A DNA stretch of 64,000 bases, taken from NCBI RefSeq assembly GCF_053078305.1, contig NZ_CP166879.1; one strand, 5' to 3'. Position 1 is the stretch's first letter. Every line of letters starts with the position of its first letter. The position numbers and the translations under genes are program-made. Shown here piece after piece: positions 1-6,997 of the stretch. The notes below the pieces were generated by a model that saw nothing but the letters and a program-made list of their open reading frames with translations, ran no database searches and was not told the origin of the DNA.

Positions 1-2325
1 CTGATTGGCGGTGTGCCCGCGATCTTTCAGCCATGCGTTCAGGCAGACGCGGGTTGCCCGCAGTGCTTCACCCTCAGGCCAGCCGGTGATACCCAGACGG
101 GTTGCCAGTTCACCCGCCATCGCCACCAGTGCAAAGCGATTCACAGCCCGGCCCACCTGGTTGCCTGCATCTTTCGGAGTCAGGGCGGCAGCATATTCCT
201 TCATCAGCGATTTTGCCTGTGCCGTTAGTCCGTTAAGATCAGCGGTCAGTGCTTTCAGCCACTCCCGGAACGGCGAACCGTAGTAGCAGGACGTGGCCCA
301 TTCAAGATGCTCTGCCAGAGCCTTGCCGCTGTCGAAGCCGTGCAGCTCCTCAAAAACGCCAAACTTCCCGGAATCGCTGGGGATCTGGATCATCCTGACT
401 TCCATCCCGGCAAAAGTACGCTCACCGGCCTTTGCCGCATGTTCGGTCAGAGATAACTCGCCAGTTGAAAAGAACAACAGGCGCCACTGCTTACGGGTAC
501 GCAGCTCACCGTCCGTACCGGCACGACCCTTGCCCTGACCGTTTGCCAGCATGTAGGCGATACTGCCTGCCTCGCGTCCGTCAACTTCCCGGATCTCATC
601 AAGCATCATGGCGGCATCGTTGCGGCGGCTGGCGCATCCCTCCAGCGCGTTGCCGGTGGCCCGCCATGTCTGCCAGTAGTCAGGCCCGCCGCAGACGGAG
701 GTTGCCGCTTTCATGGTGGTGGTCTTACCGTCTGTCGATTCCCCTTTGAGGTGGTAGCCGCCGCCGTCCATACCAACCAGCCGTAACAGTGGTGCAGCAA
801 AGGCCAGGCTGACAGCAAATGCCACGCGGGAGTTGCCGGTACAGTAGCGGGATACGTTCTCCCGCCATTCCTCTGTTGTACCCGACACGCGGAAATCACG
901 CCCCTGCACGGAAGTGGTCTGGAGAATGACACCCTCTGCACCTTCACCGCTGACCTCATCCTGCAGGACGTAAACCTGACCATGCCAGCCAGTACGGCTG
1001 ACGCAGGTCACGCGGCGTTCCGGTTTACACAGTGAGATATATTCCATCAGGCGTGCGCGTGCCTCACCGGTGGTGCTGATATAAGACAGCCCGTTAACCA
1101 GCAGTACCCGGCGCAGTTCCTCACCACTGCCGCTCAGCATTTCCATCGGCATCGCCCAGCGGCGACGCTCACCCCATGTATCTTCCCATTCCAGCAGTCG
1201 TCCGAAGTTACCGCCATCGGCATCGCAGGTGATTGCCGTAACGCGCAGCGGGCTGCATATTTTGACGTTCTGGATCTCCGTCTCACCGTTGCGCTGTACC
1301 TGCTTTTCATACCAGAGATATTCCTGGGTAAGACGGAACCCGTGCGGCAGTTGCGTGCGGCCTTCCCCGCACAGTACCAGACCGTTGCGAAAGACTTCAC
1401 GGGCACGGGTAATACCGTGCTCCCGATGAAAGTCATTCCAGTCAGCCTTAATCTCTCCTGGTGGCAGCGTCATCCAGCCGCCAACAGCTTTTGCCGCCCG
1501 TTCAGCAAAGGCTCTGCCGGGATTCTCCCCCCCGTCCTGAAAATCGTTATCACCGGCGATGATAATTTTTACCTCAGGCCAGCGTGCCCGCAGCGACTGC
1601 GCCACATTGGGCAGGTTGCCCGCAGATATGGCAGCCACTACGCATCCGGCAGTGAGCTGGCTTACCGTCAGCGCCGTAGCGTAACCTTCGGTAATCACCA
1701 CCTGTACCGGTGGTTCAGACGGTAACGGGCTGAGCGACACAAACGCGCCTTTCATCGTGCTGCCGGGCAGTATGCTTTTTTCACCCGTCGGGGCGATAAG
1801 CTGTGCACCGGTCACGGCTCCGGTGTTGGTCGTGAGTGGTAACAGCAGAGAACCGGCAGGAAAATCCTTACCGCTGATATGCTGCACGCTTCCGGTCAGA
1901 GAGGCTGGGTATCCGGCGAACCCTTTTCCTGTCAGATAGGCGCTTTCTCCCGTGTGGCTCTCTTTCATCAGCGCCGCCACGGTAAGACCCATGTCGCGTT
2001 TAGGGGCTTTTTGTCTGGCAGGCTTAACAGGCAGTTCCTGCACATCCGGCACATTAAGCATCTGCGCCACCTCCTGCGCAGCCTTTCTGACGCTGTAACC
2101 GGTTACGAGCTTAACCAGATCCAGACCGTCACCATTGCCACACTGGCTGCAGATCCACGTCCCGCGCCCGTCAAGGTCATCAAGGCGAAAACGATCCTTG
2201 CCCCCACATTTCGGGCAGGGACCGTGCCTGCCGTTTTCAGGTACATCAATACGCAGCATCTGCAGAATAACGGGCCATTTCCCCCGCGCGGCGGCTGAAA
2301 TCTGCGTAACCGTCTGTATTGTCAT
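1..2325 (-). CDS. Replication protein: Zn-ribbon + Toprim primase fused to a P-loop (DUF927-like) helicase. It is truncated at its 3' end by the window edge, with at least 775 codons visible.
   Basis: It is absent from the ORF track because no stop codon lies inside the window. Manual minus-strand translation from ATG 2325 (ATGA overlap with the upstream ORF stop) stays open to position 1. It starts MTIQTVTQISAAARGKWPVILQML. Motifs seen: CPKC...CSQC zinc ribbon (codons 37-62), Toprim-like VVITEGYATA and IIIAGDNDF, Walker A GESTDGKTT, Walker B MMLDEIRE. The family assignment (P4 alpha / PICI Pri-Rep type) is from memory. Confidence 0.85.
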   Translation of the reverse strand, partial: MTIQTVTQISAAARGKWPVILQMLRIDVPENGRHGPCPKCGGKDRFRLDDLDGRGTWICSQCGNGDGLDLVKLVTGYSVRKAAQEVAQMLNVPDVQELPVKPARQKAPKRDMGLTVAALMKESHTGESAYLTGKGFAGYPASLTGSVQHISGKDFPAGSLLLPLTTNTGAVTGAQLIAPTGEKSILPGSTMKGAFVSLSPLPSEPPVQVVITEGYATALTVSQLTAGCVVAAISAGNLPNVAQSLRARWPEVKIIIAGDNDFQDGGENPGRAFAERAAKAVGGWMTLPPGEIKADWNDFHREHGITRAREVFRNGLVLCGEGRTQLPHGFRLTQEYLWYEKQVQRNGETEIQNVKICSPLRVTAITCDADGGNFGRLLEWEDTWGERRRWAMPMEMLSGSGEELRRVLLVNGLSYISTTGEARARLMEYISLCKPERRVTCVSRTGWHGQVYVLQDEVSGEGAEGVILQTTSVQGRDFRVSGTTEEWRENVSRYCTGNSRVAFAVSLAFAAPLLRLVGMDGGGYHLKGESTDGKTTTMKAATSVCGGPDYWQTWRATGNALEGCASRRNDAAMMLDEIREVDGREAGSIAYMLANGQGKGRAGTDGELRTRKQWRLLFFSTGELSLTEHAAKAGERTFAGMEVRMIQIPSDSGKFGVFEELHGFDSGKALAEHLEWATSCYYGSPFREWLKALTADLNGLTAQAKSLMKEYAAALTPKDAGNQVGRAVNRFALVAMAGELATRLGITGWPEGEALRATRVCLNAWLKDRGHTANQ

Positions 2326-2705
2326 ACTTCCCCCTGATACAACGTCACACCGGTACTGCAGAAGTCATCAAAGGCCGCCGGAAGCGTGCGGTACATCTCC
2401 GCCATCACTTCACAGCCGCGCGCGGTCAGTACCGGCGGCGCGGTCAGCAGTGACGGCTCCAGCATGTCAGTCAGCAGTGCCAGCGCGGCAGCGGCGCCCT
2501 GTGCTTCGCCGTACTCGTTAATCAGTGCGCACTCGATATGCAGCGCAATGGCCATTTCAATACGCTCCACCGTCAGGCTGTGCGGACCATACTGATCACT
2601 GCCAGTTTCGTTCAGCATTTTCTGCCGCCATGCTGAAGCAATAGCCCGTCGGTAAAGCGCGGTGGTCATTTCTGCCGGGAAAATGGAAACCTGCGGCTGG
2701 TTCAT
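2322..2705 (-). CDS. Hypothetical island protein (127 aa)
   Basis: An ORF in the track. Its start overlaps the stop of the upstream ORF (ATGA at 2702-2705), and its stop overlaps the primase ATG. No motif recognised. Confidence 0.6.
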   Translation of the reverse strand: MNQPQVSIFPAEMTTALYRRAIASAWRQKMLNETGSDQYGPHSLTVERIEMAIALHIECALINEYGEAQGAAAALALLTDMLEPSLLTAPPVLTARGCEVMAEMYRTLPAAFDDFCSTGVTLYQGEV

Positions 2706-2986
2706 CTGGCACCTCCTTCAATCAGTGCGCAGCTGTGTGCAATATCCGTCAAATCTGCCCGCAGGTACTCCATCAGCGCGGCGACACCAGGCGCACAGCC
2801 TGCGTCCAGTGCTCCGGCCTGAGACGGGTATTCAGAAAAGAGAAGCTGGAGCATGTCGCAGGCATTTCTTGCGCGGATCAGCTTTCCGAAACCGTCCTCT
2901 GACAACCCATAGGCAAAAGCACCGGTATTGTGTTTTTCAGGCAAAGTGTGGCCCTGAGCACCGTTGTGCCCGTTTGAAATATTCAT
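2702..2986 (-). CDS. Hypothetical island protein (94 aa)
   Basis: An ORF in the track. A GGAG lies 9 nt upstream of ATG 2986. It is translationally coupled to the next gene. No motif recognised. Confidence 0.6.
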   Translation of the reverse strand: MNISNGHNGAQGHTLPEKHNTGAFAYGLSEDGFGKLIRARNACDMLQLLFSEYPSQAGALDAGCAPGVAALMEYLRADLTDIAHSCALIEGGAR

Positions 2987-3017
2987 CGTGAATTACTCCG
3001 TTTTCAGCGGTATTTTG

Positions 3018-3377
3018 TCAGAGAAACTTTGAATAGTGACCGTCGTCAGGCTCAGCAGAACGCCGTATGGTACGCTCCCGCCAGCGGATAAATAGCACAG
3101 ACGGATGCAGTGTCAGCGGGCCGGAACCACTACTGCCTGCAGGAGCTGGTGCAGGCTTAAAGAGCGGTACATCAAACAGGCGCGTATACCGCTGTTCAAA
3201 CCATGCCAGAGGGCAGGAAGAAAGCTGGTTGTCGCTGTCATGACGTATCAGCACTTCACAGCTGAATTCAGGATTAACCAGCGCCACAGAGGGCGAGGCT
3301 TCTATTAATCGGATAATCGTGACCGTCCAGCCACGTTCATGCCGCCAGCGTTCGCCGGGGTGCGGATAATTACGCAT
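3018..3377 (-). CDS. Hypothetical island protein (119 aa from MRNYPHPGERW)
   Basis: ATG at 3377 is preceded by GGAGGTGAAC, a strong SD. The ORF-track start at 3407 has no SD. It overlaps the end of the Icd-like gene by 8 nt. Confidence 0.6.
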   Translation of the reverse strand: MRNYPHPGERWRHERGWTVTIIRLIEASPSVALVNPEFSCEVLIRHDSDNQLSSCPLAWFEQRYTRLFDVPLFKPAPAPAGSSGSGPLTLHPSVLFIRWRERTIRRSAEPDDGHYSKFL

Positions 3378-3546
3378 GTTCACCTCCGCAGGGAATGCGC
3401 CCGGCAAAGCTCAGTACACAGTCCGGGGCAAGTCTGCGCCGCGCTGACCGCTCATTATCTGCGGTGAGCCTTAACATCACAGGACGGGCATTGCGTTGAC
3501 TGCGGTTGATCGCCGCAAATAACCAGGTACACTTCTGTTTAGCCAT
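3370..3546 (-). CDS. Small protein (58 aa) resembling host cell division inhibitor Icd-like proteins of P4-type elements
   Basis: MAKQKCTWLFAAINRSQRNARPVMLRLTADNERSARRRLAPDCVLSFAGRIPCGGEHA. ATG 3546 is preceded by GAGGT. This is the C-terminal part of a spurious 244-aa ORF in the track. The Icd-like call is from remembered family sequences, not a search. Confidence 0.55.
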   Translation of the reverse strand: MAKQKCTWLFAAINRSQRNARPVMLRLTADNERSARRRLAPDCVLSFAGRIPCGGEHA

Positions 3547-3575
3547 CTTCGTTACCTCATATAGCGGATTGGTCA

Positions 3576-3610
3576 GAAGCCCGGTTAGTGTTGCTGCACT
3601 GTCGGGCTTC
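3576..3610 (-). other. Stem-loop in the 5' leader of the icd-like/primase operon
   Basis: GAAGCCCG (3576-3583) pairs with CGGGCTTC (3603-3610) around a 19-nt loop. There is no following U-run, so it is not a typical terminator. Confidence 0.4.
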
Positions 3611-3622
3611 GCACTCACAAGG

Positions 3623-3712
3623 TGAATCGCACCTTTAATTTTAAAGCTACCCTTAAGTGAATCGCACTTCAAGCTTTTTATTATCATTTTTTTTGCGTAT
3701 ACTGAATCGCAC
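3623..3712. promoter_or_regulatory. Divergent promoter/operator region with three direct TGAATCGCAC repeats
   Basis: Exact 10-mers at 3623-3632, 3658-3667 and 3703-3712. The third abuts a TATACT -10 candidate (3698-3703) for the plus-strand RHH gene. On the minus strand the repeats overlap candidate -35/-10 elements of the icd-primase operon. Confidence 0.6.
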
Positions 3713-3733
3713 CTAACGCGAGGAGATCCAGTA

Positions 3734-3919
3734 ATGGCAACGAGTTCAACTAACAACAAGTCGCAGCAACTTAATGCTCGTTTCCCACATGATGTAGTTG
3801 CAGAATTAGAAAGCAACCTTGAAGATGGAGAAACGAAAGCGCAATTCATTGTTACTGCTGTAAAAGGCGAGATTAAACGCCGACAGCGCAGGAAAAATAA
3901 GCCAGAGCAAGGAAGTTGA
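3734..3919 (+). CDS. Small ribbon-helix-helix (Arc/MetJ/CopG-like) DNA-binding protein, 61 aa
   Basis: GAGGAG SD 8 nt upstream of the ATG. The pattern is beta-strand LNARFP, helix DVVAELESNL, helix TKAQFIVTAVKGEIKRR, then a basic tail. A bidirectional hairpin follows. The fold call is inferred from the sequence pattern. Confidence 0.6.
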   Translation: MATSSTNNKSQQLNARFPHDVVAELESNLEDGETKAQFIVTAVKGEIKRRQRRKNKPEQGS

Positions 3920-3982
3920 ATAGAGAAGCCAACAGACGTTCTCTCTGGTCCCATGTTAATTTCAGTAAGCGACAATATTTTT

Positions 3983-4016
3983 AAGCCCACAAATTCATTA
4001 TGTCGGGCTTTTTTAT
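3983..4016. terminator. Bidirectional hairpin between the convergent RHH gene and alpA
   Basis: AAGCCC (3983-3988) pairs with GGGCTT (4005-4010). There is a T-run after it on the plus strand and an A-run before it. The loop is long (16 nt), so confidence is moderate. Confidence 0.5.
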
Positions 4017-4030
4017 TAGTGATTTTCATA

Positions 4031-4246
4031 TCACTCACCACGAGAGGCATATATTTGCTCTTGAATCCAGTGATCAACTTCGCTTTCAACGAATGAAATT
4101 GCACGAGTTCCTATTTTCACCGGACGGGGAAATGTATTGTTTGCAAGCTGTTTGTAAAGCCATGCCTTGCTACGCTGAACGCGTCTTAATACCTCTTTTG
4201 CTGAGATAAGAGTCTGATTATCTGAAAAGCTGTTTGCATATTCCAT
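4031..4246 (-). CDS. alpA: AlpA-family (MerR-like HTH, Vis/excisionase-type) phage regulatory protein, 71 aa
   Basis: MEYANSFSDNQTLISAKEVLRRVQRSKAWLYKQLANNTFPRPVKIGTRAISFVESEVDHWIQEQ is the typical AlpA signature (FP.P.K.G.R...W...EV..W). ATG 4246 is preceded by GGAG. The ORF-track start at 4291 is an extension. Confidence 0.85.
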   Translation of the reverse strand: MEYANSFSDNQTLISAKEVLRRVQRSKAWLYKQLANNTFPRPVKIGTRAISFVESEVDHWIQEQIYASRGE

Positions 4247-4530
4247 CTTGTTACTCCGTGTTCTACTTAAGTTCACGGTGACTTTAAACACTGGGAAAAA
4301 GTGATTCTAGTGATAATGGAATCTATTAAGACAAACATTGATTCTATTGAAAAACAATAATCTCCACTGAAAAAAAGAAGTAATATTCATATGAAAGAAC
4401 ACGGAAAGAAGGAAATGCACAAAACAATAAAATTAATAAAATTCATATAGATAGGATGGAAAATCAAAAAATCATACGTCAAAAGGTATTATTACATTTT
4501 AACGATTCATATTACCTAGGAATTAGCACA

Positions 4531-4607
4531 GTATTACACCGTATTACATCGTATTACCCCCTATAGCCCCTTAGAGCCTCTTGTGGCCCTTCTATTGAGA
4601 GATAGCC
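4531..4607. repeat. 10-bp-phased repeat tract: three tandem GTATTACNNN units followed by RGCC motifs on the same 10-bp register
   Basis: GTATTAC at 4531, 4541 and 4551. AGCC/AGCC/GGCC at 4565, 4575 and 4585, with another AGCC at 4604. Degenerate ATTAC copies lie at 4491 and 4511. The tract lies just 3' of the 212-codon ORF and about 290 bp upstream of alpA. Confidence 0.8.
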
Positions 4608-4622
4608 AGAAAATTAATAAAT

Positions 4623-5261
4623 TCACTCTCCGTATTTTATAATGTCTTTCCCCAGCTTTATTTTCTTATAAAACGTAGCTTTTTTAATCCCTTTCATTAG
4701 AATCTCATTCTCATTACAAAAAGAAACAATATCATTATATATAACACTATTATCGCTATAACTTACCTTTCCATGTCTCTTAAGCAATTCAATTAGTAAA
4801 TAAATTAATTTACAACTATAATTATCCTCATCATCTTTTCTGTACTGCCCTCTACCATTACTCCTTAATTTTTTACCAACTTCACATAATTCACTTCCTC
4901 CTAACGTCATTAGAATATCGCTCCAATCTTTATTTTTTACCTGTTGTCGTAATGCGTTCTCAATTCTCTCCTTAATCTCCACAGGTACAATACCTTCCCT
5001 CTGAAAGATATAAGCAGCAGTTAATAATAAGTTCGCCTCCACTTTTTGCGTGGCGGATACGTTTTTATATTCATTAATTAATTGTAGATTTCTGGTTATT
5101 GCCTTTCTTAATCTAATAACCTCTTTTAATTGAACCTCAGTCAATTCATCATTTTCGGTATCATAGTCAAAACCATTCATAGCAAGCGCCACTTCGTGTG
5201 GCGTTATGTAAGTTAACCTATTAAAATAAAACAAATTATTATCAAATTGAGTATTGTTCAT
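4623..5261 (-). CDS. Orphan AT-rich protein of unknown function (212 aa) with a possible C-terminal helix-turn-helix
   Basis: An ORF in the track. GGAGAG lies 8 nt upstream of ATG 5261, which is only 29 nt after the int stop. Hand-counted lines give about 22-35% G+C. No enzymatic motif recognised. The C-terminal GIKKATFYKKIK resembles resolvase/Hin-type HTH recognition segments. Confidence 0.75.
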   Translation of the reverse strand: MNNTQFDNNLFYFNRLTYITPHEVALAMNGFDYDTENDELTEVQLKEVIRLRKAITRNLQLINEYKNVSATQKVEANLLLTAAYIFQREGIVPVEIKERIENALRQQVKNKDWSDILMTLGGSELCEVGKKLRSNGRGQYRKDDEDNYSCKLIYLLIELLKRHGKVSYSDNSVIYNDIVSFCNENEILMKGIKKATFYKKIKLGKDIIKYGE

Positions 5262-5290
5262 TTAAATCTCTCCGCAGCCCCCAATGGTAA

Positions 5291-6553
5291 TTATTTTCCA
5301 TGCATACGCGCAAAATCATATGGTGTGATAGATCCATTCTTATTAGCATCAATATAATCAGCCCACCATTGCAACATTAATCTTCTTTCTTCAAGATATT
5401 CGGAAGTATGCATATATGAACCTTTCACGTTTTTTCGTTCAACGTGGCTTAACTGTCTTTCAATGGCATCATCATTCCATAGTTTCGACTCACTTAGCGC
5501 ACCACGCGCCATAGTTCTAAACCCATGACCACATACTTCAGTTTTCGTATCATATCCCATTACACGTAAGGCGTTATTTACTGTATTTTCACTCATTACT
5601 TTTTTAGGATCATGATCGCTGGGAAATATAACCTCACCTTTACCACTCAAGGCATGTAAACGTTTAAAAATATCAAATGCTTGTTTGCTAAGCGGAACAA
5701 TATGTTCAGTTTTCATCTTCATCCCACGCTCAGAGTGTTTTACGCCGGGAATAGGCTTACGAATTCCGGGTATTGTCCACTCGCTTCGTTCAAAGTTAAC
5801 CTCACTCCAGCGAGCAAAACGCATCTCACTTGAACGTATAAATGTGAGTAGCGTTAATTCAACGGCAAGCCGTGTCATTAGTCGCCCTTTATAGCGTGAT
5901 AGTCTTTCAAGAAGCTCAGGAATTCTTTTTGGGGGTAGTGCTGGGTGGTGGGTTGCTTTAACGCTTAAAAGCGCTCCAGCCATATCGCATGCAGGATTTG
6001 ATTCAAGCAGGTCATTCTGCACACCAAAACGCATAATTGCGGTTACGCGCTGCATCAGTCGCTGCGCGACATCATGTTTACCTGCCGTATCGACAGCTTT
6101 GATTGGATTGAGAAGCTGGCTGGTTCTCAACGTTCTGGCATCGATTTGACCTATCGAGGGGAAAATATACTGCTCAAGTGTCAGCAGAACACGACGGCTA
6201 TGATCTTCGCTCCAAGTAAGGTTACTTGCGTGCCATTGCCTTGCGATAGTTTCAAATAAATATGCCCCCTCAATTTCAGCTTGTGCCCCCTTTTGCTCAG
6301 CTTTGGGGTCAATACCCTGAGACAACAATTTCTTTGCTGCATCGCGCTTACCCCGCGCTTCAGCCAAAGTGACAGTCGGGTATACACCAAAAGCGAGTCG
6401 ATCTTCCTTTTTGTCAGAGGGGCGGCGATATTTCATGCGCCAGTACTTAGAACCTTTAGGGGAGACCTCAAGATACAAGCCGCCTCCATCAGCCATTTTA
6501 TAAGCTTTCTCTTTCGGCTTTGCGGTCTCTATCTGGCGAGCGTTGAGTTTCAT
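5291..6553 (-). CDS. int: P4-type tyrosine integrase (420 aa from MKLNARQIETAKPKEKAYK)
   Basis: The N-terminal Arm-DNA-binding signature (KLNARQIE..AKP..K.Y...DGGGLYL.V...GSK.W...Y) is present, as are the catalytic R (FIRSSE), HGFR and C-terminal Y (GSYMHTSEYL). It is adjacent to the tRNA 3' end. The ORF-track start at 6574 is a 7-codon extension. Confidence 0.92.
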   Translation of the reverse strand: MKLNARQIETAKPKEKAYKMADGGGLYLEVSPKGSKYWRMKYRRPSDKKEDRLAFGVYPTVTLAEARGKRDAAKKLLSQGIDPKAEQKGAQAEIEGAYLFETIARQWHASNLTWSEDHSRRVLLTLEQYIFPSIGQIDARTLRTSQLLNPIKAVDTAGKHDVAQRLMQRVTAIMRFGVQNDLLESNPACDMAGALLSVKATHHPALPPKRIPELLERLSRYKGRLMTRLAVELTLLTFIRSSEMRFARWSEVNFERSEWTIPGIRKPIPGVKHSERGMKMKTEHIVPLSKQAFDIFKRLHALSGKGEVIFPSDHDPKKVMSENTVNNALRVMGYDTKTEVCGHGFRTMARGALSESKLWNDDAIERQLSHVERKNVKGSYMHTSEYLEERRLMLQWWADYIDANKNGSITPYDFARMHGK

Positions 6554-6607
6554 TTTGGGGGCACAAATCCTCATCGAATTGACATGCCCCCGATTATGCC
6601 CCCAAAA
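6553..6607 (-). promoter_or_regulatory. Inverted repeat and GGGGGCA repeats in the int leader
   Basis: TTTTGGGGGCA (6553-6563) is the exact reverse complement of TGCCCCCAAAA (6597-6607). There is an extra TGCCCCC at 6585-6591. The proximal arm ends on the A of the int ATG. Confidence 0.55.
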
Positions 6608-6717
6608 GAGGGTAGACTACAAGAGACCAACAAAGACCATTAGATACCATACTTTACTTGTTTTTTAAGGATTTTTTTGTATTTAGAGACTTCAGGAAAC
6701 GTCAAAAGAAGTGTTAA

Positions 6718-6802
6718 TGGTGCCGAAGGCCGGACTCGAACCGGCACGTATTTCTACGGTTGATTTTGAATCAACTGCGTCTACCGATTTCGCCACTTCG
6801 GC
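6718..6802 (-). tRNA. leuX: tRNA-Leu (anticodon CAA)
   Basis: The reverse complement reads GCCGAAGTGGCGAAATCGGTAGACGCAGTTGATTCAAAATCAACCGTAGAAATACGTGCCGGTTCGAGTCCGGCCTTCGGCACCA. This is a class II tRNA with a long variable arm, a CAA anticodon and an encoded CCA. It is identical to my memory of K-12 leuX. Confidence 0.97.
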
Positions 6803-6831
6803 ACTGAAGAGGTATGCGGAAAACGTTGTGG

Positions 6832-6860
6832 ATTATACCTGTCGCACGCCACCATGCAAG
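6832..6860 (-). promoter_or_regulatory. Candidate leuX promoter
   Basis: On the minus strand there is CTTGCA (6860-6855), a 17-bp spacer, then TATAAT (6837-6832), 30 nt upstream of the mature tRNA 5' end. Confidence 0.5.
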
Positions 6861-6997
6861 CGCCAGCTTGCTCGCACCTCGCTAAGTGCTGAAATTTTCA
6901 GCATTGCATACAGCGATGTGTAACCTTTGTCACACTCCAGGCACCCCTCCCTGCCATGCTCTACACTTCCCAGACAACACCAGAGAAGGACCAAAAA

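Follow-up and report, generated by a model that had tools for sequence, protein, structure and literature searches.

What does the gene between the integrase and alpA genes of a P4-like satellite do, and does it belong to the satellite itself or to the cargo that such elements carry? We addressed this question in a 64,000-nucleotide stretch of contig NZ_CP166879.1 (NCBI RefSeq assembly GCF_053078305.1), called the window hereafter, which holds the int-proximal part of a ~12.7-kb P4-like satellite at leuX. The gene, designated X here, follows the integrase gene int and precedes alpA, and in strain EC20, whose island is 99.9% identical, RefSeq labels the same coding sequence (CDS) 'hypothetical protein'. 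Work by Rousset and by Fillol-Salom in 2022 is said to describe variable hotspot cargo in P4-like satellites and in PICIs (chromosomal islands that phages can induce), and an earlier sequence-only reading of the window had taken X for a recently acquired cassette in a variable slot, encoding either a defence or helper-interference factor or a regulator acting on a repeat array just downstream. Our comparisons indicate, with high confidence, that X is instead a conserved int-linked backbone gene and not cargo. As for its function, we favour, at a probability of roughly 40%, a DNA-binding regulator, co-expressed with Int, whose predicted target is the control region that separates X from alpA.

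X is fixed beside the integrase in related satellites

Hotspot cargo varies between related elements at a fixed position, and a comparison of homologous islands, which the sequence-only reading had suggested, revealed no such variation for X. The gene was found in 204 of 5426 complete Escherichia coli genomes, 203 of which contain 80% or more of the whole int-X-alpA-icd stretch; at ≥95% identity, the int allele occurs in the same 204 genomes, and no E. coli genome holds this allele without X. All seven IMG/VR loci with an int at least 98% identical carry X as well. When one representative genome per species was scanned for the X pattern, eight loci from eight species were recovered, each with X after int, and int was 97-98% identical wherever it was intact. 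X has decayed in Apirhabdus and two Symbiopectobacterium genomes, as has int in two of these three. All three sets keep X in its slot, and because the gene is conserved at the same position in all related islands, it does not behave as swappable cargo and the idea of a recently acquired cassette has to be given up.

The exact X protein occurs on 730 contigs, and its 90%-identity cluster (n=1315) covers Escherichia, Klebsiella, Salmonella, Citrobacter, and Enterobacter, with every member named 'hypothetical'. We tallied 64 X loci spanning P4-like, PICI, and capsid-forming PICI (cf-PICI) architectures. Enough upstream sequence was available for 50 of them, and in 48 of these a co-oriented int ends within ~60 nt of X, while alpA lies 317-650 nt downstream of X in 40 of the 50. 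The two exceptions to int adjacency are a decayed symbiont locus (L014) and a locus with a 4.5-kb insertion between int and X, where a PAAR-DUF4225 protein, small open reading frames (ORFs), and a Dit-like tail protein gene are encoded (L127, 329-6636). X relatives of 21-35% identity directly follow the integrase in PICIs and cf-PICIs; they sit in a cf-PICI recorded as 'phage vB_KppS-Ant', in a PICI that was submitted as a circular plasmid of 12 kb, in a PICI at der of Klebsiella, in an island of Salmonella, and in 35 further IMG/VR contigs. In three distant relatives (L020, L021, and L022), the X and int ORFs overlap by 1-4 nt, across the int stop codon. The first of these records (L020, LR881103.1, 16.5 kb) is titled 'Escherichia phage vB_KppS-Ant' and labelled 'induced prophage', and its genes (int, an X-like gene, alpA, primase, capsid, portal, and terminase) are those of a cf-PICI and not phage-like.

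We conclude that X belongs to the integration-regulation module of an enterobacterial satellite lineage. The published accounts that were searched describe an integration zone of int and AlpA and leave gene X unmentioned (PMC6092414, PMC10111431, PMC8628076, PMC13586616), and our literature searches with X accessions, its PHROG, and the Gram-negative PICI repressor as subjects found no work on this gene. The tight link between X and a satellite integrase is previously undescribed.

Cargo is added downstream of X

In int-alpA elements that lack X, the interval is empty or holds a DUF6387 protein, a 228-aa ORF, a 246-251-aa ORF, or a SIR2-HerA system (L037, 7651-10547). The single ORFs start 141 nt (L030), 194 nt (L031), and 13 nt (L076) from int, respectively, and PADLOC gives no match for any of them. 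As candidate relatives of X, the DUF6387 protein, the 228-aa ORF, the 251-aa ORF, YfjH, and P4 cII were all rejected, since hhalign shows no relationship; the C-terminus of the 251-aa ORF resembles that of X by eye, but not significantly in hhalign. The yfjH gene does lie between intA and alpA of CP4-57, as the sequence-only reading had stated, on the opposite strand. Where X is present, cargo is found between X and alpA: Lamassu LmuA/C/B (L130, 6876-10575), PDC-M48B with an E1/E2/JAB protein (L140, 6943-11580), an ORC/CDC6-like ATPase (L129 and L137), or a SEC-C protein (L103). An insertion sequence (IS) element occupies this position in L109, and the X-alpA interval of the window island is without cargo. 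Since cargo arrives downstream of X while X is unmoved, X is the constant int-side flank of an int-proximal hotspot. The int-to-alpA slot is thus variable across the wider satellite group, as had been proposed, but X itself is constant. In satellites with the int-alpA order, the X-alpA interval forms a hotspot for defence genes close to int, separate from the classic psu-int hotspot, and X is a useful landmark for it.

These observations bear on the view that X is a single-gene anti-phage or helper-interference factor, which the integrated satellite would make constitutively from its int transcript. X would then be comparable to the cargo in the canonical P4 hotspot, whose place is likewise directly downstream of int: the classic hotspot of canonical P4-likes at leuX (int ~70% identical) begins right after int and holds a TIR protein, a restriction-modification system, or unknown genes; P4 cII, tested within the gop-beta-cII defence, lies 66 nt after int (PMC9122126); and SIR2-HerA fills the interval of L037. 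X is also AT-rich, with deeply diverged alleles and an unrecognised fold. Defence genes normally move between hotspots, however, and X is int-adjacent with only the two exceptions above among the 50 loci, is translationally coupled to int in relatives at 21-35% identity, and has genuine cargo added after it instead of being replaced. It shows no catalytic or membrane signature and no PADLOC match, and the island already has a candidate defence system at its real hotspot: the cargo after delta in the near-identical EC20 island (L001 5992-9076) is a full-length PADLOC match to the candidate system PDC-M38A/B (an AbiL-like ATPase plus partner), a cassette at the far island end, outside the window. 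We regard a defence role for X as possible but doubtful.

X is an intact gene under purifying selection

The int stop codon ends at 5291 and X starts at 5261, leaving a 29-nt gap, and a GGAGAG Shine-Dalgarno sequence lies 6 nt 5' of the X ATG. The intact 212-codon ORF described from the letters alone agrees with our coordinates and with the RefSeq CDS (Table 1). Given that X begins 29 nt past the int stop, the two genes are probably co-transcribed. The G+C content of X is 0.31, compared to 0.44 for int, 0.57-0.63 for the primase region (1-2700), and ~0.45-0.50 for the flanking core, which bears out the strong AT-richness noted before; positions 4200-5400 as a whole range from 0.29 to 0.33.

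One could suppose that such AT-rich spacer DNA merely contains a decaying or meaningless ORF, and the low G+C, the missing annotation, IS insertions in the X-to-alpA stretch of a few strains, and frameshifted copies in symbiont genomes would all fit. On the other hand, dN/dS is 0.05-0.16 at dS 0.19-0.30, as measured for allele pairs with unsaturated synonymous divergence, which indicates that X is under purifying selection. The protein is also conserved over its full length, with shared motifs down to 21% identity, and AlphaFold2 models it at a pLDDT (predicted local distance difference test) of 90.7 from 29 sequences only. The selection and conservation data refute the view of X as a non-gene, and we find decay hardly credible as an explanation. 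As for the insertions, the X-to-alpA stretch of strains STEC276 and 3502 (equivalent to window 4292-5290) contains an IS1A, and an insertion somewhere in 3370-6574 is found in 2017.15.01CC (IS1A), DETEC-S560 (IS903B), and Y5 (ISKox3, which probably splits int); this AT-rich stretch is apparently a target for IS elements.

Table 1. Features discussed in the text (window positions unless a locus is named)
Feature	Position	Strand	Remarks
Gene X	4623..5261	minus	ATG start, 212 aa, intact ORF
P4-type tyrosine integrase (int)	5291..6574	minus	Pfam PF13356, PF22022, PF00589 (arm-binding, central, catalytic domains)
alpA/vis-type regulator	4031..4291	minus	Pfam PF05930, E 1.4e-11
tRNA-Leu(CAA), leuX	6718..6802	minus	Satellite integration site, attL side
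10-bp-phased direct repeat array	4510..4590		Begins ~35 nt past X stop codon
alpA-proximal repeats T(C/T)AAT(A/G)GAAT	4296..4372		3-4 copies plus inverted copy GATTCCAT; upstream of alpA
352-aa DUF6387 protein	L030 1402-2460		Co-oriented, after int
228-aa ORF	L031 4549-5235		Co-oriented, after int
246-251-aa ORF	L076 7295-8035		Co-oriented, after int

X is a predicted all-helical, two-domain protein of an uncharacterised family

Residues 1-212 of X align with positions 1-220 of the 220-position profile of PHROG 30524 (E 3.3e-108), a family without functional annotation. A word-indexed search recovered 23 clusters of the family, and an exhaustive hidden Markov model search of 1.84 billion representative proteins recovered 41 clusters (at 50% identity) at E≤1e-3, nearly all of 206-241 aa. 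The protein had been called an orphan; this holds in that it has no annotated domain, but it does belong to a small family with a full-length PHROG of unassigned function. Neither the single sequence nor a profile of the 29-member family alignment gave anything significant against Pfam, NCBIfam, PADLOC, and PDB sequences, and nor did the C-terminal domain alone in the same kind of searches, in keeping with the earlier failure to recognise a defence or enzyme motif. In PADLOC-DB v2 (5027 defence-protein models), 0 families matched X at E≤1, and this library works on these loci, as it recognises neighbouring cargo elsewhere. A PDB match to P4 Psu (E 0.47) was dismissed because it is at chance level and absent with the profile search. 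X represents an uncharacterised family with an unrecognised fold.

The AlphaFold2 model is all-helical, as had been guessed from the sequence. Only P93, G138, and G191 are invariant in the 29 sequences, and no group of residues looks catalytic. Residues 1-112 make up an acidic to neutral N-terminal domain, with a median pI of 6.1 and a mean pairwise identity of 27%, and the C-terminal domain (residues 113-212) is basic, with a median pI of 9.2 and a mean pairwise identity of 38%. The latter contains a long helical hairpin whose turn bears the invariant motif G-R-G-x-Y-R-K-x-D-E, then a helix characterised by K-L-I-x-L-L-x-x-L-L, and a terminal helix-loop-helix whose motif G-I-x-K-(A/S)-T-F-Y-x-K (G-I-K-K-A-T-F-Y-K-K in one form) is conserved across the family. 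This end of the protein had been likened to a resolvase/Hin-type helix-turn-helix (HTH). The likeness stands at the motif level, where G-x-x-K-S-T-F-Y also aligns with the AlpA recognition helix, but no HTH profile matches significantly: hhalign of the C-terminal domain against an AlpA alignment paired 23 columns at a probability of 4%, no Pfam HTH family reaches E≤1 with the window protein, and the best scores among the 29 members were 0.012 for HTH_Tnp_Mu_2, 0.024 for AlpA, and 0.053 for HTH_20 (range E 0.01-0.07, in one or two members each). At 212 aa and with a model without a strand-rich wing, X also lies outside the AlpA/Vis/excisionase group (PF05930, HTH_17).

A phased repeat array accompanies X

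The repeat array that the sequence-only reading had seen immediately downstream of X was confirmed. Its core consists of three exact GTAATAC units at 10-bp spacing (4531-4557), flanked on both sides by degenerate units (GGCTCTAAGG, GGCTATAGGG, TGCTAATTCC, GGTAATAT), and it is unique in the 64-kb window and matched in 0 of 100 shuffles. With at least three copies of a 7-mer required, at most one mismatch, and a period of 9-12, an array was detected in the X-alpA interval of 10 among 11 divergent elements that carry X, compared to ~1% of shuffles, and in 0 of 10 int-alpA elements without X. The repeat unit differs between X clades and is related within the near clade (GTAATAC, GGTGATA, and GGTTATA), where the terminal helix of X is nearly identical. 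The array is a candidate operator for X. The AT-rich spacer between X and alpA measures 331-376 nt; RefSeq starts alpA at an ATG at 4246 (71 aa), and the mechanical ORF starts at a GTG at 4291. The alpA-proximal repeats in this spacer are kept in cf-PICI and Klebsiella PICI loci, where AlpA is only ~38% identical over 29 residues, and they probably represent AlpA boxes with the alpA promoter, for autoregulation.

Other assignments of the array were considered and rejected. It is not an Int arm site, since Int is 97% identical where the arrays differ, nor is it an alpha type-1 iteron here, since TGTTCCACC clusters only downstream of alpha. E. coli 873.10, which has int, X, and the array without alpA, was considered as an array-X recombinant and set aside as an uninformative, IS1-bounded deletion remnant. 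Between alpha and sid (L001 10961-11361, left of the window start), the TGTTCCACC motif is present in either orientation, with six exact copies and several that have one mismatch. This cluster is probably the alpha-binding ori/crr of the satellite; the P4 type 1 iteron is TGTTCACC, and the TGTTCCACC motif is absent from L002/L005-type elements, whose alpha is 57% identical.

In position, the array is the counterpart of the 'type 2' repeats that the P4 origin carries upstream of vis. X and the array could belong to the machinery that replicates or maintains the satellite when it is excised or a plasmid, with X as an origin-accessory, copy-control, or centromere-like binding protein. The P4 origin is immediately upstream of vis/alpA, with three tandem 10-bp type 2 repeats beside the alpha-binding type 1 repeats; the X-alpA interval of cf-PICI-type X elements contains 10-bp tandem repeats plus five TGTTCAT type-1-like iterons; and, as noted above, one X-bearing PICI was deposited as a circular plasmid. 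P4 has type 2 repeats without X, however, the alpha-type iterons of the window island are downstream of alpha and away from X, no partner NTPase is present, and X is co-expressed with int and not with the replication genes. We thus consider a replication role rather unlikely.

X as a candidate regulator of the X-alpA control region

The two alternatives of the sequence-only reading are not equally well supported: because of the basic, conserved HTH-like C-terminal domain and the co-occurrence of X with the array (10/11 vs 0/10), a regulator acting on the array appears plausible and preferable to a defence or interference factor. Starting from the position of X as second gene of the int operon, and from its conservation, selection, and hotspot-flank behaviour, we infer that it binds DNA, where it binds, and what regulatory effect this may have. 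AlpA is an activator. X would be a two-domain, non-enzymatic, all-helical protein whose basic C-terminal domain, which has the HTH-like motif at its end, binds DNA. The predicted target is the array, phased at 10 bp or one helical turn, downstream of its own gene and upstream of the alpA promoter. Produced together with Int in the integrated state, X may occupy the array as an oligomer, and array-bound X could hold the alpA-led lytic/excision operon off or block read-through from int. The variable acidic N-terminal domain could receive a signal.

Several points weigh against this regulatory role. The loci behind the correlation of array and X are not phylogenetically independent, and a cargo-bearing clade (L103, L129, L130, and L140) has X and no phased array. 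Conversely, P4 and one other canonical P4-like (L038) have a similar array of 3 x 10 bp upstream of vis/alpA without X, and the P4 copy is annotated as part of ori ('type 2' repeats; P4 record). Since alpha is 57% identical between the X allele classes, covariation of the array with alpha and with X is inseparable. A few E. coli strains carry the IS insertions in the X-to-alpA stretch described above. Many working satellites are without X, and EcCICFT073 apparently has alpA directly after int, with alpA before 'ORF3' (PMC6092414); the role of X must then be dispensable for the satellite life cycle generally. Should X prove non-regulatory, it would be one more uncharacterised accessory gene of mobile elements.

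Island organisation and the relationship of X to Int

P4-like satellites are defined by int, alpA, alpha primase, sid, psu, and delta, all within about 10-15 kb at a tRNA site, and all six are annotated in the EC20 island. From leuX, its order is int, X, alpA, YlcI/YnfO (opposite strand), an icd-like gene, three small ORFs, and alpha primase, followed by sid, psu, delta, a two-gene cassette, and attR. Canonical P4-likes are arranged differently, as int, hotspot, psu, delta, sid, and alpha side (PMC8628076). The int-X-alpA-icd-alpha-sid-psu-delta-cargo-attR order (window 1-6802; L001 5700-18511) is not among the variants listed in PMC8628076, and ~204 of 5426 complete E. coli genomes carry it. 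The YlcI/YnfO-family gene (3734-3919, plus strand) lies between icd and alpA, opposite to the satellite operons. A SymR Rfam match in the same interval and on the same strand (3541-3613, plus) is sub-threshold, at 26 bits compared to a gathering score of 61; over 3300-6900, Rfam gave no RNA family besides the tRNA, and no P4 CI-type RNA family.

In the near clade, the two main allele classes differ little in int (dS 0.12-0.29, protein 97% identical), whereas X is 65% identical with saturated dS, AlpA 74-78%, and alpha 57%. This sharp change in divergence falls at the int/X junction (window 5261-5291; L002, L005, L010, and L012) and is seen across genera. Low int divergence beside a saturated X implies that int has evidently been exchanged or homogenised among diverged satellite backbones, with the boundary at the int/X junction, and that X diverges with the backbone. 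On deep branches, X (27-32% identical) and Int (24-27%) are about equally conserved.

This history also bears on whether X is an integrase accessory, which as an architectural or directionality factor would give attL/attP complexes their shape or tune Int activity. Such a role would explain stoichiometric co-expression with Int, the constant int-then-X order, and the ORF overlap in distant members, and the deep-branch divergence of the two proteins is in step. Within the near clade, on the other hand, the contrast between Int and X and the recombination boundary at their junction speak against tight co-evolution. The array is ~1.3 kb or more from the att core, beyond the int gene, related integrases work without X, and AlpA/Vis already fills the excisionase role (PMC6092414). 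A function as an Int accessory is thus unlikely.

Comparison with known systems

Among known genes, P4 cII (264 aa, 'sce7726 family') is closest to X in position. Like X, it is the first gene after a P4-type int, co-oriented and separated by a short gap (66 nt in P4, 29 nt for X), and it is non-essential for the satellite (PMC9122126). The two share no sequence or profile similarity (hhalign E 0.43), and their settings differ: cII is part of the canonical variable hotspot, X a constant gene at the edge of variable DNA. With gop and beta absent from the island and no homology to cII, X is not part of a gop-beta-cII system. AlpA/Vis proteins (PF05930, HTH_17-type) share with X the integration zone of Gram-negative satellites and the motif S/K-S-T-x-Y. 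X is three times longer, all-helical, and wingless, however, fails the AlpA Pfam model (E 0.024 at best, reached by a single member out of 29), and lies upstream of alpA, with which it coexists.

The DNA-binding likenesses are of two kinds. As in the C-terminal HTH of resolvase/Hin, the putative recognition helix of X is the last helix and carries a G-I-x-x-S-T-x-Y-like motif. As with iteron- and centromere-binding proteins (ParR/ParG-type adaptors; P4 ori type 2), the gene sits beside a helical-turn-phased array, and the repeat sequence on the X side changes between lineages. Compared to ParR/ParG-type adaptors, X has no homology and no partner NTPase, and its binding is putative.

The most far-reaching comparison is with Stl of SaPIs (the pathogenicity islands found in Staphylococcus aureus) and Rpr of Gram-positive PICIs; no master repressor is known for Gram-negative PICIs (PMC6092414). 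It is conceivable, though improbable, that X is the missing repressor-sensor in some of the Gram-negative satellites, equivalent in function to SaPI Stl but built on a new, unrelated fold. Produced alongside Int while the island is quiescent, X would then coat the array via its C-terminal domain and silence AlpA-driven excision-replication, until a helper-phage protein binding the fast-evolving N-terminal domain displaces it. Stl is transcribed divergently from the lytic operon, while X runs in the direction of that operon; the two resemble each other in neither sequence nor fold, and many Gram-negative satellites are without X. On the other hand, Stl/Rpr and X share a place beside int, where the regulatory region begins or ends, and the two-domain logic of Stl/Rpr, with a DNA-binding and a variable domain, is the one predicted for X. 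X is a cheaply testable candidate for the control layer by which PICIs, cf-PICIs, and many P4-like elements would be kept silent and sense their helpers.

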